DNA of 64,000 nt from an uncultured bacterium (lineage in GTDB: Bacteria; Chlamydiota; Chlamydiia; Chlamydiales; CAZBXE01), in NCBI GenBank assembly GCA_964496125.1, contig CAZBXE010000001.1, forward strand, positions 35,486-99,485. The letters are read 5' to 3'. Position numbers and translations under genes: made by a program. Below the pieces are notes generated by a model, which was not told the DNA's origin, made no database searches, and saw nothing but the letters and a program-made list of their open reading frames with translations. Positions within the stretch are counted from its first letter, which is position 1. Every line of letters begins with the position of its first letter. This document shows, piece by piece, positions 27,492 to 34,631 of the stretch.

Positions 27492-27839
27492 GTGACAACA
27501 GAGTTTTCTCTAGAAGACGCAAAAAAACAGTGGCTTGGGACGTTTAGGGCCTATGCGATTGGGTTTGCTTTTTGCCTTTTTTTGACCACGGTCTCTTTTG
27601 CCCTTGTCGTGCTGAAGGGATTTGCGGGCTTTCCTCTTGTAGCGTCACTGCTTGCACTTGCTCTACTACAGGCAACTGTGCAACTTCGTTTCTTTCTTCA
27701 CTTGGGACAGGCTCACAACCACCGTTGGGAGAAACTTGTGTTTTTCTTTATGATTGTTTTACTTCTTGTTGTGGTGATCGGATCGCTTTGGATTATGCAG
27801 GATTTAGATGAACGAATGATGATGGGGATGCATGATTAA
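27492..27839 (+). CDS. cyoD: quinol oxidase subunit IV
   Basis: YAIGF, QLRFFLHL, GSLWIM; GTG 27492 right after the cyoC stop. Confidence 0.93.
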   Translation: MTTEFSLEDAKKQWLGTFRAYAIGFAFCLFLTTVSFALVVLKGFAGFPLVASLLALALLQATVQLRFFLHLGQAHNHRWEKLVFFFMIVLLLVVVIGSLWIMQDLDERMMMGMHD

Positions 27840-28677
27840 CTATTATTTGATCACAAAGCCTGGGATTATCTTAGGGAATTTAATTACGCTGGGTGCAGGT
27901 TTTATTTTAGCTTCGCAGGGGGGCTTTGATCCTTGGCTGTTCGCATCTACTTTTTTAGGGCTTGCGTTGATCGTGGCTTCTGCTTGCATTTTTAATAATT
28001 ATATCGATCGTGAGCTGGATCAGAAAATGGAAAGAACAAAGAAGAGAGCTCTTGCTTGTGGCGCAGTTTCTCTAAGAAGTGCTCTTCTTTTTGCTCTGCT
28101 CCTCGGGGCAATCGGTTCTATGTTGCTTTTAGTTTGCACGAACTTCCTTGCCTTTTTTCTCGCGTTTCTTGGTTTTTTTGTGTATGTCTTTATCTACAGT
28201 CTGTGGAAGGCCCATACGGTTTACGCAACTGCTGTCGGCAGTGTTGCCGGCGCTGTGCCTCCAGTTGTAGGGTATTGTGCTGTATCAGGCAGCTTGGATG
28301 TAGGAGCGCTTCTTCTCTTTGCGATGATGGTGCTTTGGCAGATGCCCCATTTCTTTGCCATTGCGCTAATGCGCTTTGATGATTACCTTGCAGCCAATAT
28401 TCCAACTCTACCAATCCAAAGGGGTGTGTGGAGGACAAAGGTCCATATGGCGCTCTACATTTTCTTTTTTATAGGGGTCTGTTCTCTTTTTAGCTATTTC
28501 GGCTATACAGGGGATTTGTTTTTGTTTGTGGCAGTTGGAGCAGGTCTTCTGTGGCTGATTGTGTGCCTCTCGGGATTTGTGGTTTCGGATGACAGCGCTT
28601 GGGGGCGAAGCATGTTTCGTCTTTCCCTTGCTATTCTAATGGCGATCTGCTCTTCCCTTCTTATTGAACTTTTATAA
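27832..28677 (+). CDS. cyoE: protoheme IX farnesyltransferase (heme O synthase)
   Basis: TKPGI, NNYIDRELDQKMERTKKR, WQMPHF. Confidence 0.95.
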   Translation: MINYYLITKPGIILGNLITLGAGFILASQGGFDPWLFASTFLGLALIVASACIFNNYIDRELDQKMERTKKRALACGAVSLRSALLFALLLGAIGSMLLLVCTNFLAFFLAFLGFFVYVFIYSLWKAHTVYATAVGSVAGAVPPVVGYCAVSGSLDVGALLLFAMMVLWQMPHFFAIALMRFDDYLAANIPTLPIQRGVWRTKVHMALYIFFFIGVCSLFSYFGYTGDLFLFVAVGAGLLWLIVCLSGFVVSDDSAWGRSMFRLSLAILMAICSSLLIELL

Positions 28678-28692
28678 TATCTTAACTAAGAT
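28664..28692 (+). promoter_or_regulatory. promoter candidate for the duplicated-domain/CPBP gene pair
   Basis: TTGAAC-17-TAAGAT; SD-like AGAGG before ATG 28730. Confidence 0.5.
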
Positions 28693-28729
28693 TTGTTACA
28701 CTACCCTTTTTACAATAAAGAGGTTTGTG

Positions 28730-29209
28730 ATGACAGGTTCAACAGTTTCCCGTTTTACATCATTTTGGCCTAATTATTCGCATGAAAAGAAGGCTCTTTT
28801 CTGGAATACCACCAAAGGAAAAGCGTATGTGCCTTTGCAGCGCTTTTCTGAGTATTTGTACTATGAGGAAGAAAAGATTGAAAAAAAGACTGGGTGGTTG
28901 ATCGCCTTACGACTTAAAGACCCAGAGACAATCATTCGTATTACCGATGTTATCAAGACGACCCAATCAGAAAAGACCCTTTTTGCAGCAGGCTTTCGAG
29001 ATGAAGTGATTCGCATGTGCTCCCTTGGATCTGATTCCTGGGGCGGGAGAGTGCGGAATGTAGCTATCCTTGTGTCCTCTCTGTTTTTTGTAGGAATCCG
29101 TCCGGTAGTCTTAGTTCTTGCAGCAAGAGTTATCGGAGAGGGTATATGCCGCCTTACCCCTTTCTCTAATATAAAGCTGACCCCAAGTGAGGCAAAGGGG
29201 GTCTCTTGA
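28730..29209 (+). CDS. hypothetical protein, paralogous to the N-terminal domain of the next gene, C-terminal hydrophobic segment
   Basis: 159 aa from ATG 28730; aligns by eye with residues ~25-115 of 29206..30174. Confidence 0.75.
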   Translation: MTGSTVSRFTSFWPNYSHEKKALFWNTTKGKAYVPLQRFSEYLYYEEEKIEKKTGWLIALRLKDPETIIRITDVIKTTQSEKTLFAAGFRDEVIRMCSLGSDSWGGRVRNVAILVSSLFFVGIRPVVLVLAARVIGEGICRLTPFSNIKLTPSEAKGVS

Positions 29210-30174
29210 GCCTCCCCTCAAATGTGGTGCTTAGCCAAAGCTTGTTTTCCTGGACGATAGGGGAATGTAGAAAAACAATTCCCCTACAAAGAGGCTCTTC
29301 CATTATTTATCAAGAAGAAAAGCTCTTTGAAAAAAGGGGGATCCTTGCCTATTTGAGGCTTACTTCCCCGTTTACAGAGTACCGTGTTGTTAGGGTCATC
29401 ACGAAAACCGATTCCTTGTCTGCTTTATTCTTGGCTTCGATACGCGATTTTGCTCTCTGCTATTCTGGTCTAGGGGGGCAATCTCAGAAAGAGAGAGTGG
29501 TCAATATTGCGGTTACCATCGCTTTATTTATGTTGATGACTCCCTTTGCTGCGCTCAGGCATCTTGCTCTATTTGATACGTATCGAAGTATTCTTTCAAC
29601 AGCTGTTTGGAAGAAGGGTTTTCCCCTAGATAAAGGCACTTTTGGCAAAGTGCTTCTTGGTGCTTTGATGGTTCAGCCTGAAATGAGGATTCAGAGAAAC
29701 GTTTTCTCTTTTGCTGAAGGGGTCATGACCCCTCGAAATCTGAGCCAGTTGTCAAGTTTTTTCTACGCCGTGATTGGGGCTCCTTTGCTGGAGGAAACGA
29801 TATACCGAGGGGTTTTCTACGATAAACTCACCCCTTCTAGATATGGAGAGGAAAAGAAATCCCTTTTGAAAAAGGTGTGCCTCATTTTGACGGGTCAAGA
29901 AAAGAGAAAGAAAATACTACAGCCCCTTACGTTTAGAGACAGGTGCAGGAGAACTTTTGTCACATCTCTGCTTTTTGGACTTGCCCATTACATCCCTGGA
30001 GAAGGTTTTGCGGGGATCCCGCGAGTTTTAGGAATAACAACAAGTGGCCTTGTTCTAGGGGGACTGCGGGAAGTGACAGGTGATCTATGGGCCTCAACTA
30101 CCATGCACGCCCTTCACAATATGGTGATTAGCATTGGGGAAAATTGGCTAATGATTGACCCCTCAGTTCTTTAG
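29206..30174 (+). CDS. CPBP/Abi (type II CAAX-like) intramembrane metalloprotease with extra N-terminal domain
   Basis: LEETIYRG (EExxxR), FGLAH (FxxxH), HALHN (HxxxN); TTG start overlaps the upstream TGA. Confidence 0.8.
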   Translation: MSLPSNVVLSQSLFSWTIGECRKTIPLQRGSSIIYQEEKLFEKRGILAYLRLTSPFTEYRVVRVITKTDSLSALFLASIRDFALCYSGLGGQSQKERVVNIAVTIALFMLMTPFAALRHLALFDTYRSILSTAVWKKGFPLDKGTFGKVLLGALMVQPEMRIQRNVFSFAEGVMTPRNLSQLSSFFYAVIGAPLLEETIYRGVFYDKLTPSRYGEEKKSLLKKVCLILTGQEKRKKILQPLTFRDRCRRTFVTSLLFGLAHYIPGEGFAGIPRVLGITTSGLVLGGLREVTGDLWASTTMHALHNMVISIGENWLMIDPSVL

Positions 30175-30230: not shown

Positions 30231-30258
30231 TTGACAAAATTTAACGATTCTTTATAAT
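30231..30258 (+). promoter_or_regulatory. consensus sigma70/sigma66 promoter of yicC-gmk-rpoZ-hyp-metG (leaderless geometry)
   Basis: TTGACA(30231-36)-16-TATAAT(30253-58)-6 nt-ATG 30265; no SD. Confidence 0.75.
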
Positions 30259-30264
30259 ATCTCT

Positions 30265-31146
30265 ATGATAAAAAGTATGACTGCCTTTGGTCGGGCTCGG
30301 TTAAAGAAGCCTCAAGGGTACTTCGTTGCAGAAATCCAATCCCTTAATCGTAAGCACTTAGAAATAACTACCTCGTTGCCTAAAGAGGCATATGGTCTTG
30401 AAATCGAAGTGAGAAGGCTTGTTGCTGAAATGCTTGCCAGGGGAAAAATCCAAATCAAGATCTCTCTAGAAGCCGAAGCAGAGACATCCTTACGCATTAG
30501 GCCTAATCTTGCCTTAGCCAGGGAAATAAAATCAGCGTGGCTGCAGATTGCAAAAGAGTTAAACATTCCCTTTGAGGACGCGCGTCTTTGCGAACTTTTG
30601 ATCCGCGAAAGCGCTGATCTATTAGGAAGAGAAGAAGGTGATTGTGGGGAGGAGTTAAAAGAGGGGGTGCTCGAGTCTCTCTTACTTGCCTTAAAAGATT
30701 TAGAAGTCATGCGCCAAATAGAAGGGGAGTTTTTAAAAAAAGATTTCTCAATGAGGATTGGATTGCTACGTGAGCTTTTTGGAAAGATTGAGCAGGCAGC
30801 AGGCAAAACAAAGGCAGTTTACGAAGAAAGGCTTAGAGAAAGGTTGCAAGCTTTTGATTTAGAAGATAATGAAGATAAGATTCTGAGGGAAGTAGCTCTC
30901 CTTGCAGAAAAATTAGATATCAGTGAGGAAATCACCCGTTTTCGCTCCCATCTGGACCAGTTTACTGAGATCATGAATGCCAAAGAAGGAGGAGTGGGTA
31001 AGACGCTTGACTTTTTGTTGCAGGAGCTTTTTCGTGAAGTCAACACTGTAGGATCTAAGGCGCAAGATATTGAGATCACAAGGTGGGTCATTCAGGCCAA
31101 AGGGGAGCTGGAGAGTTTGAGGGAGCAAGTGCAGAATGTCGAGTGA
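30265..31146 (+). CDS. yicC: YicC/YloC family endoribonuclease
   Basis: MIKSMTAFGR, LNRKHL, RGKI, DISEEITRFRSHL, GKTLDFLLQELFREVNTVGSK; upstream of gmk. Confidence 0.93.
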   Translation: MIKSMTAFGRARLKKPQGYFVAEIQSLNRKHLEITTSLPKEAYGLEIEVRRLVAEMLARGKIQIKISLEAEAETSLRIRPNLALAREIKSAWLQIAKELNIPFEDARLCELLIRESADLLGREEGDCGEELKEGVLESLLLALKDLEVMRQIEGEFLKKDFSMRIGLLRELFGKIEQAAGKTKAVYEERLRERLQAFDLEDNEDKILREVALLAEKLDISEEITRFRSHLDQFTEIMNAKEGGVGKTLDFLLQELFREVNTVGSKAQDIEITRWVIQAKGELESLREQVQNVE

Positions 31147-32000: not shown

Positions 32001-32616
32001 CCCAGGATTTACAAGCTCCAATGCGGTGCTTTTCTGGCAGATCATGGGGGCTTTTTTTGCCCTGGTAATGGGGACTTTACTTATTGTATTTGTCAATTAC
32101 CTACTCTCCAAAAAGTTTAAGGGCGCTGTCTGCCCGTATACTGGGGAGCCAGTAAGGCCCTGTCAACACCTAGAATTTTCACTTAGGGAGAAGGCTTACG
32201 AATGGTTTAATCAGCATGAGGCTTACCGCAACCAACGGATTGATTTTAGGAGGGCCGCCTACTGCCGAAGGACGGGGAGGATCTTCCCTGATTGTATTAA
32301 ATTTTGGGGGGGTATTTTTCTAGACTGGACATTCCTACGTAAACGCTGCCCAGGAACTTGGGTATCTTGGGGTAGTTTAAGCCTTGCGCAGAAAAGAGCT
32401 ATTCAAGAGGCCCAAGGTTCTCTTGAGGGCTACCAGACAGAATACTCAAGTCAAAGGCCCGCTCCTCGAATGATTGAAAAGGAATATATTTATTTAACCC
32501 CGGGCCCCCTTTATGTAGATCTTGCTACGAAAGTCGTGATGGGCTGGAAAGTGGTTCCCGGAACAGATCTTGAAGTGCTCATTGTGCAAAACCCGGAAGG
32601 AAAAACTTCGGTATGA
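31993..32616 (+). CDS. hypothetical membrane-anchored Cys-containing protein
   Basis: N-terminal TM helix, then CPYTG..PC..C..C..C; overlaps both neighbours. Confidence 0.8.
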   Translation: MPDPGFTSSNAVLFWQIMGAFFALVMGTLLIVFVNYLLSKKFKGAVCPYTGEPVRPCQHLEFSLREKAYEWFNQHEAYRNQRIDFRRAAYCRRTGRIFPDCIKFWGGIFLDWTFLRKRCPGTWVSWGSLSLAQKRAIQEAQGSLEGYQTEYSSQRPAPRMIEKEYIYLTPGPLYVDLATKVVMGWKVVPGTDLEVLIVQNPEGKTSV

Positions 32617-34631
32617 CGGAAAAGATTCTTATCACCTCAGCTCTTTTATACGCAAACGGACCTCTCCATTTTGGACACATCGCAGGAGCGTATCTTCCCG
32701 GGGATGTCTACGCTAGATTTGAACGCCTCCTTGGCAATGATGTCCTCTATATCTCCGGGTCAGATGAATATGGTGTTGCCATTACGTATGCAGCAGATGT
32801 CACTGGGAGGACGCCTAAAGAGCATGTTGATCTTTACCATGAGATCAATAAGAAACTCTTCCAAGATCTAAACTTCTCTTTCGACCACTACTCCCGCACG
32901 ACCTGGGAAGGACACATAAAGCCAACCCAAGACTATTTCTTAGAACTCTTGGCAGCAGGCTACATTGAAGAGAGGGTGACAGACCAGCTTTACTCCGAAA
33001 AGGAACAAAAGTTTCTGGCAGACCGGTATGTGGAAGGGGATTGCCCACACTGCGGCAAGCCAGGGGCAAGAGGTGATGAGTGTCCTTCTTGTGGAGCAAG
33101 CTTTGACGCAACGGATCTGAAAAATCCAAGGTCTAAGCTTACGGGATCTCCCTTAGTCTTCAAGCCTACAAACCAATGGTTTTTGCGCCTTGATCTCTTA
33201 AAGTCTAGATTGCAAGAGTGGCTTGCGACAAAAAACTGGAAGCCCAACGTTGTAAATTTTATTAAAAAATTTGTTGACGACTTGGAGCCTCGCGCCATTA
33301 CTCGTGACTCTACTTGGGGTGTTCCCATTCCGCTTCCAAACACCGAGGGAAAGGTCCTCTACGTTTGGTTTGATGCCCCGATTGGATATATTTCGGCTAG
33401 TATGGAGTGGGCTGAAATCAAAGGAAAGAGAGAGGCTTGGAAAGACTACTGGCTCGATCCTAAGACAAAGCTTGTGCATTTCATCGGCAAAGATAACATT
33501 CTTTTCCATGCCGCCATTTTTCCTGCAATGACAATGGGGCAGAAAAAGCCATACAAGCTCGTCGATGAGCTCCCAGCCAATGAGTTTTATTATCTTGAAG
33601 GAAAGAAGTTTAGTAAAACTGAAGGTTGGTATATAGACTTTGACGACTTTTTTACAAAATACACCTCTGACCAGCTCCGCTATGCCATCGCTGCGAGTGC
33701 CCCTGAGACAGCAGATGCTGATTTCACCTGGCAAGATTTCCAGGTGCGCTGCAATGCAGAGCTTTTAGGAAAGTTTGGTAATCTTGTGAACCGCACTCTT
33801 GTTTTTGCAGACAAAAATTGTGATGCGAAAGTGCCCTCTCCAGCTGGCTTGGAAGTGATTGACACAGAGTTTTTAGCAAAGGTAAAACATCTTGTGGATG
33901 AGGCAAGAGAGTGCTACGGTTCATTTAAAATTCGTAAGGCATGTCAAATCATTATGGAACTTGCGCAGGAGGGGAACGTCTATTTTAACGACAAGGCTCC
34001 TTGGAAAGATGCGAAAGCTCCTGAGACAAAACAGCGTCTTGCAAATACTCTCTTTTGCTCACTTGAGTGCTTAAAAGCTTTGGCCCTCATTTCTCAGCCG
34101 ATCATTCCGCATAGCTCTGATAAGCTTTGGAGCATGCTTGGGTTCAAAACAACGCTTGCAAAATCGAAATGGGAGGCATTGAAAGAAAAGCCTATCCCTC
34201 CCGGGCAAGCTCTGTCGCGGGAGCCTGTCATCTTATTCCGCAAGATTGAACAGGAAGAGATAGATGAAGAAATCAAAAAGCTTAAAAGCGCCGGTGCGGC
34301 TTGTACAAAACCTCAGATTTCTATCGATGATTTTGACAAGATGGACCTTCGAGTAGGGAAAATTGTGGAAGCTGCACCTGTCCCTAAAAGTAAACGGCTT
34401 CTCAAGCTGCAGATTGACCTGGGCTTTGAAAAAAGAGTTGTGGTTTCAGGAATCAGTGAACACTATCAAATAGAGGAGCTAGTTGGGAAGAAAGTGATCG
34501 TTGTTGCTAACCTTGCCCCTGCGAAGTTGATGGGAATTGAGAGTCGTGGGATGGTTCTTTGTGCCAAGCAAGATGGGGATCTAGAGATTCTTACTGTGAC
34601 AGAAATCGCTCCTGGTTCTAGTGTTAGTTAG
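32613..34631 (+). CDS. metG: methionine--tRNA ligase with C-terminal tRNA-binding (Trbp111-like) domain
   Basis: YANGPLHFGH, CPHC..CPSC zinc knuckles, KFSKT, DFDKMDLRVGKI...ANLAPAKLMGIES. Confidence 0.97.
   Translation: MTEKILITSALLYANGPLHFGHIAGAYLPGDVYARFERLLGNDVLYISGSDEYGVAITYAADVTGRTPKEHVDLYHEINKKLFQDLNFSFDHYSRTTWEGHIKPTQDYFLELLAAGYIEERVTDQLYSEKEQKFLADRYVEGDCPHCGKPGARGDECPSCGASFDATDLKNPRSKLTGSPLVFKPTNQWFLRLDLLKSRLQEWLATKNWKPNVVNFIKKFVDDLEPRAITRDSTWGVPIPLPNTEGKVLYVWFDAPIGYISASMEWAEIKGKREAWKDYWLDPKTKLVHFIGKDNILFHAAIFPAMTMGQKKPYKLVDELPANEFYYLEGKKFSKTEGWYIDFDDFFTKYTSDQLRYAIAASAPETADADFTWQDFQVRCNAELLGKFGNLVNRTLVFADKNCDAKVPSPAGLEVIDTEFLAKVKHLVDEARECYGSFKIRKACQIIMELAQEGNVYFNDKAPWKDAKAPETKQRLANTLFCSLECLKALALISQPIIPHSSDKLWSMLGFKTTLAKSKWEALKEKPIPPGQALSREPVILFRKIEQEEIDEEIKKLKSAGAACTKPQISIDDFDKMDLRVGKIVEAAPVPKSKRLLKLQIDLGFEKRVVVSGISEHYQIEELVGKKVIVVANLAPAKLMGIESRGMVLCAKQDGDLEILTVTEIAPGSSVS

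Follow-up and report, generated by a model that had tools for sequence, protein, structure and literature searches.

A predicted CPBP/Rce1-like intramembrane protease and an adjoining stand-alone paralogue of its N-terminal module in an uncultured chlamydia-like bacterium

In a 64,000-nucleotide stretch of DNA from an uncultured chlamydia-like bacterium sampled in wastewater (assembly GCA_964496125.1, contig CAZBXE010000001.1, positions 35,486 to 99,485; hereafter the window, whose own numbering is used for all positions below), two neighboring open reading frames share an N-terminal domain that one of them carries ahead of a protease core and the other carries by itself. The first, ORF1 (28730..29209), encodes 159 residues consisting of the shared domain, a hydrophobic anchor and a 19-residue tail, without a protease part, and the second, ORF2 (29206..30174), encodes a 322-residue CPBP/Rce1-like intramembrane protease; both, like every feature described here, lie on the + strand. 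This locus is best read as a lineage-specific pair, in which an active glutamic intramembrane protease is accompanied by a membrane-anchored paralogue without catalytic function. CPBP proteases abound in bacteria, and their substrates and regulation are mostly unknown (PMC11980579). The protease family itself is known, and what appears to be new, judging from the sequence, is an orphan N-terminal module that is also present as a stand-alone paralogue. An accessory module that is encoded apart as well, and selectively kept, would provide a simple two-gene test system for the N-terminal control or feeding of a glutamic intramembrane protease. The general reach of the finding is small unless relatives turn up, because the domain has been found in a single metagenome-assembled organism only.

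The initial annotation of this DNA had described, from an alignment made by eye, an unrecognised domain duplicated in tandem, with one free copy and one copy fused to an intact CPBP core in tightly linked genes, and each part of that description held. BLASTP aligned residues 21-116 of ORF1 with residues 11-106 of ORF2 at 37 identities in 97 positions (38%), with 2 gaps and an E value of 3e-15, which is essentially the alignment that had been drawn by eye. The Smith-Waterman score of the two proteins was 139, as against 31.7 +/- 5.0 for 2000 shuffles (z 21.5), and when only the soluble parts were compared it was 126, as against 24.8 +/- 4.4 (z 23), so the similarity stands 21-23 standard deviations above shuffled sequences and is significant. 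The shared domain proper spans 28790..29053 in ORF1 (residues about 21-108) and 29236..29496 in ORF2 (residues about 11-97), and is basic, with an isoelectric point of about 9.3-9.6. As had also been noted, each copy is followed by a hydrophobic helix, which by hydropathy corresponds to RNVAILVSSLFFVGIRPVVLVLAARVIGEGIC at 29054..29149 in ORF1 (residues about 109-140) and to the first transmembrane helix of ORF2 at 29497..29565 (residues about 98-120). The homology is not confined to the soluble part, extending through a juxtamembrane RVxN[VI]A segment (GRVRNVA in ORF1, ERVVNIA in ORF2) into the helix of both proteins. ORF1 had no family match in Pfam, NCBIfam or PADLOC, its sole PHROGs match was a stray one (phrog_6869, E 0.084), and a profile of the shared domain matched nothing among the PDB sequences; the domain thus carries no known housekeeping identity and deserves to be called unrecognised. 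No third copy was found within the window. A possible origin of ORF1 as a decayed copy of the whole gene that suffered an internal deletion is unsupported, because the collinear second BLAST segment (VIGEGICRL...KLTPS against VIGAPLLEETIYRGVFYDKLTPS) is insignificant, at z 0.9 and with 388 of the 2000 shuffles equally good.

Comparing the 95 aligned codons of ORF1 and ORF2, nucleotide identity is 0.43, 0.59 and 0.27 at codon positions 1, 2 and 3, respectively, where chance at position 3 is 0.25. Synonymous sites are thus saturated and the protein conserved, and the duplication is old, because third positions are at chance while positions 1 and 2 are conserved. Since the saturation is accompanied by a conserved protein and by two frames that are both open with a ribosome-binding site of their own, purifying selection has kept both copies; a neutral remnant of such age is not what one would expect ORF1 to be, as its 159-codon frame would otherwise have closed. 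We therefore regard the pair as an old tandem duplication in which both copies are selectively maintained. The list of open reading frames begins ORF1 at TTG 28664, and its most likely start is ATG 28730, because that codon is preceded by the ribosome-binding site AAAGAGG, read directly from the sequence at 28717..28723, 6 nucleotides before the ATG; the database gene call uses the same ATG. The TTG at 29206 that opens ORF2 is preceded by AAGGGGGT and served by the ribosome-binding site AAAGGGGGT (29194..29202), which includes an A_AAG_GGG heptamer and a run of five G (G5). An alternative ORF2 start at GTG 29227, giving 315 residues, is the one used by the database gene call. The TTGA overlap of the two genes that had been proposed depends on this choice, being a genuine 4-nucleotide overlap if ORF2 starts at TTG 29206 and turning into a 17-nucleotide gap if it starts at GTG 29227. 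Base composition, G + C content and G + C content at third codon positions of both genes are uniform with their surroundings, and so there is no sign of recent import.

Residues 181-307 of ORF2 (29746..30126) match the Pfam model PF02517 in hmmscan with an E value of 3.1e-15 and 56.7 bits, against a cut-off of 22.4, and ORF1 is unmatched. The three motifs by which active CPBP members are defined (PMC11980579) can be read directly in ORF2 as EETIYR (EExxxR, with E196, E197 and R201, at 29791..29808), FGLAH (FxxxH, with F257 and H261, at 29974..29988) and, in the translation, HALHN (HxxxN, with H301 and N305, at 30106..30120). All three are invariant in an alignment of ORF2 with its two closest relatives, in keeping with their earlier description as intact. 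ORF2 is thus probably an active CPBP/Rce1-type glutamic intramembrane endopeptidase. By hydropathy, the motifs fall in moderately hydrophobic segments, and the Lys/Arg-rich loop that follows motif 1 suggests that this loop is cytoplasmic. No match to the CPBP core was found among the PDB sequences. Set beside known members of the family, such as MmRce1 and the myxosortase MrtX, the C-terminal half of ORF2 shares the model match and the catalytic motifs, whereas its N-terminal ~120 residues are unmatched and have a free paralogue adjoining them.

A query with residues 125-322 of ORF2 retrieved its two nearest relatives, both metagenomic, at E values of 1e-14 to 1e-15: P0006 (337 residues, 41% identity) and P0007 (329 residues, 36% identity), the latter annotated by the Joint Genome Institute as 'membrane protease YdiL (CAAX protease family)'. 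These two proteins resemble ORF2 in overall length, in the CPBP core, in the Lys/Arg-rich loop between motifs 1 and 2 and in an identical LREVTGDLWAST block, but they differ from it in genomic context, in having no short partner gene and in their N-terminal ~180 residues. MAFFT lines up a few residues of the shared domain with these N-termini, and homology was not demonstrated by any of the comparisons made: hhalign gave an E value of 0.13, the four pairwise Smith-Waterman comparisons gave z values of 1.1-2.3, a hidden Markov model of the shared domain did not hit either protein, and a column-shuffled profile-profile alignment gave a p value of 0.16. ORF2 is thus a member of a small CPBP subfamily of chlamydiae in which the N-terminal half is either very fast-evolving or replaced, and the free-standing copy of the domain is peculiar to the lineage of the source organism. 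The genes for P0006 and P0007 are each immediately followed by a giant uvrA of 1,797-1,894 residues (L034, 3970-10664; L035, 170-2351), with a 4-nucleotide overlap in L034 and a distance of 13-37 nucleotides in the contigs that carry P0007. A UvrA of 1,800-1,900 residues is typical of Chlamydiae, and the CPBP gene and uvrA may form a conserved gene pair in other chlamydia-like organisms.

The shared domain itself could be traced no further. Among 5.8 billion proteins, word-based searches recovered nothing but ORF1 and ORF2 themselves, and an exhaustive HMMER search of 1.84 billion representative proteins with a profile built from the domain yielded the two window proteins (E about 1e-61) along with P0003, P0004 and P0005. 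The last three were rejected as spurious, since they are translated tandem repeats whose score accumulates over 3-12 short stretches, so that the two window proteins are the only true matches among these representatives. That such repeats can reach an E value of 9e-12 against a small profile, simply by summing short matches, calls for caution with multi-stretch hits in general. All the protein clusters involved are singletons. The locus was found, with identical sequence and shallow coverage, in four DNA runs of a single wastewater metagenome study. With MetG as an anchor in 185,579 species representatives, the nearest sequence was from an uncultured Chlamydiae metagenome-assembled genome at 61% identity, on a 4.5-kb contig without upstream DNA; metagenome contigs anchored by YicC did not exceed 40% identity, and none of them carried the shared domain; scanning metagenomes with the alignment of the CPBP subfamily gave no hits. 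The source organism is deep-branching, in a chlamydial lineage of which few members have been sampled. On these searches the domain is currently an orphan, apparently confined in public data to one uncultured organism. Neither protein has a PADLOC match and ORF2 has none in PHROGs; together with the stray PHROGs score of ORF1 and the uniform G + C content, this led us to set aside a phage, defence or mobile origin.

With these observations, it can be hypothesized that an old tandem duplication gave rise to a two-gene unit in this deep-branching chlamydia-like bacterium. The first ~120 residues of ORF2 comprise a basic soluble domain and a transmembrane helix ahead of the protease core, and ORF1 is paralogous to this N-terminal module alone, consisting of domain, juxtamembrane segment and helix. 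The two proteins would be translated from adjacent or overlapping frames, each from its own ribosome-binding site, and transcribed from a weak local promoter or together with the upstream cyoABCDE operon. ORF1 could then pair with ORF2 by way of the domain and helix that the two have in common or, alternatively, compete with the N-terminal module of ORF2 itself for a shared ligand, and either route would result in a tuned access to the active site of ORF2. As for the role of ORF1, partner or regulator is most likely and substrate less likely, and we favor, tentatively and with somewhat less than even confidence, that it partners or regulates ORF2 without being catalytic itself. Non-catalytic relatives are known to regulate or partner intramembrane proteases or kinases, examples being the iRhoms for rhomboids and SpdC and Abx1 among CPBP proteins. 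The likeness to these is one of concept, namely a paralogue without catalytic residues serving as regulator; the iRhoms, SpdC and Abx1 are protease folds stripped of their catalytic residues, whereas ORF1 has no protease fold and keeps only the accessory N-terminal module. A more ambitious version, to which we give little credence, would make the domain and helix a new self-recognising regulatory cassette, in which ORF1 docks onto or displaces the ORF2 module as a gate or pseudo-substrate; if true, the pair would be a natural minimal system for the control of CPBP activity. A still bolder form of this idea has both proteins exported to a host-facing membrane.

Several observations weigh against a protease with a dedicated non-catalytic partner. 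Neither P0006 nor P0007 has a stand-alone paralogue alongside, and because these relatives work without one, members of the CPBP subfamily do not in general require a partner. No RNA runs holding the locus were found, its occurrences being the four DNA runs of the single wastewater study. AlphaFold models reached a mean predicted local distance difference test (pLDDT) score of 37.5 for ORF2 alone and 43.5 with a two-sequence alignment of the domain, with contradictory secondary structures, as models that depend on sequence depth fail because the shared domain has no homologues. In addition, hydropathy fits either one or two helices before the motif-1 helix of ORF2.

One competing explanation is that the two genes have no functional link, ORF1 being the leftover of a partial duplication, either with a role of its own or in the course of being lost. 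Compatible with this explanation are the frequency of partial tandem duplicates in general, the lack of conserved partners for the orphan domain, and the absence of such a gene in the nearest relatives P0006 and P0007. What speaks against it is that, despite synonymous saturation, the 159-codon frame has stayed open with a conserved protein and a good ribosome-binding site, and that the tight linkage has lasted; we consider it doubtful, though the most serious of the competitors. It is less probable, though still worth weighing, that the genes encode an enzyme and its substrate, where ORF2 would cut ORF1 at or near the membrane helix and free the soluble domain, and perhaps cut its own N-terminal module as well. 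A precedent exists in MrtJ and its JDVT-CTERM targets (NF033192), for which two-gene protease/target neighborhoods have been described (PMC11980579), and which likewise join a protease to one small membrane-anchored neighbor. MrtJ is also the best NCBIfam match of ORF2, but its 39.4 bits are far under the cut-off of 75, and all eight listed NCBIfam models, six of them Mrt models, score below their cut-offs. Also in favor of a substrate, the membrane helix of ORF1 is placed near the C-terminus and followed by a Cys-containing tail. Against this, ORF1 has neither the N-terminal signal peptide nor the terminal sorting tag of MrtJ targets, its N-terminus being hydrophilic, and the 19-25 residues after its helix are not a terminal basic cluster, with only 3 basic residues in the 19-residue tail, so that the features of a myxosortase-type target are missing. 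Its C-terminus, KGVS, is not a CAAX end. Moreover, ORF1 is homologous to the N-terminus of the enzyme, which MrtJ targets are not, and a substrate with such homology is a feature of no known CPBP system. None of the known kinds of CPBP substrate, i.e. a CAAX protein, a bacteriocin precursor or a CTERM-tagged protein, is encoded nearby, and a bacteriocin linkage of the Abi type finds no counterpart either, as the neighbors are cyoABCDE, yicC, gmk, rpoZ and metG and ORF1 has no bacteriocin leader.

Two further explanations are much less likely than these. ORF1 and ORF2 could be one gene, fused into a protein of ~480 residues with two tandem domain-helix modules, either by -1 slippage at A_AAG_GGG or because a G was missed in the G5 run. 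Both frames are indeed open over a 19-nucleotide zone which holds exactly this heptamer of the X_XXY_YYZ type (29194-29200) and the G5 run, and one extra G fuses the frames. However, AAAGGGG is common, with 37 copies in the 64 kb, and here it doubles as the ribosome-binding site of ORF2; RNA structure downstream of the heptamer is not significant (z -1.3). With a common heptamer and no stimulatory structure, a programmed frameshift was rejected. As for the missed base, contigs from two runs match the window, with G5 and no indels, although the assembly itself may have been built from these runs. In a fusion, the two homologous domains would also end up across the membrane from each other, unless the anchor of ORF1 is a hairpin, and we regard a single gene as very unlikely. 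Slighter still is the chance that the two are a host-directed pair, secreted to the host or inclusion membrane and acting there on prenylated host proteins. The organism is chlamydia-like, and both proteins have Ser/Thr-rich N-termini, the first 25 residues of each containing a single acidic one; Ser/Thr-rich, acid-poor N-termini also occur in type III secretion signals. The family does include the eukaryotic CAAX protease Rce1 (PMC11980579), and it was solely from this family name that the initial annotation had suggested host-directed action, a proposal that found no support. Five or six membrane helices make a type III substrate unlikely, ORF1 and ORF2 sit among respiratory and core genes, and CPBP proteins are widespread in free-living bacteria with housekeeping membrane roles (PMC11980579). 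A protease with a non-catalytic paralogue as its partner or regulator thus remains the reading that we prefer.

The pair is located downstream of cyoABCDE, of which cyoE occupies 27832-28677, and upstream of yicC, gmk, rpoZ and metG, all on the same strand. The candidate promoter TTGAAC-17-TAAGAT, which had been assigned to the pair as its own, is present at 28664..28692 but weak, agreeing with the consensus at 8 of 12 positions and hence missing from the list of our promoter scan, whose threshold was 9 of 12. Within it, a perfect TATAAT (28673-28678) overlies the last codons of cyoE, 52 nucleotides before the ATG of ORF1, with no recognisable -35 element. No terminator-like sites were predicted in the cyoE-ORF1 or the ORF1-ORF2 interval. 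The pair may therefore be transcribed by read-through of the cyo operon just as well as from a local promoter, because no terminator separates it from cyoE. Downstream, a perfect sigma-70 consensus, TTGACA-16-TATAAT (12 of 12 positions), at 30231-30258 directly precedes the yicC ATG at 30265 and marks a new transcription unit after ORF2.

Two minor observations were made along the way. The AAAGGGG copies of the window (e.g. at 29194, 29333 and 31099) exceed the shuffle expectation of 14 +/- 3.5, an excess that probably reflects ribosome-binding sites and the use of Lys-Gly codons. For metG (32613-34631), the next methionyl-tRNA synthetase relatives after the Chlamydiae metagenome-assembled genome were from Paludibacteraceae and other Bacteroidales, at 40-42% identity over the full length, which hints at a Bacteroidota-type methionyl-tRNA synthetase in the lineage of this organism.

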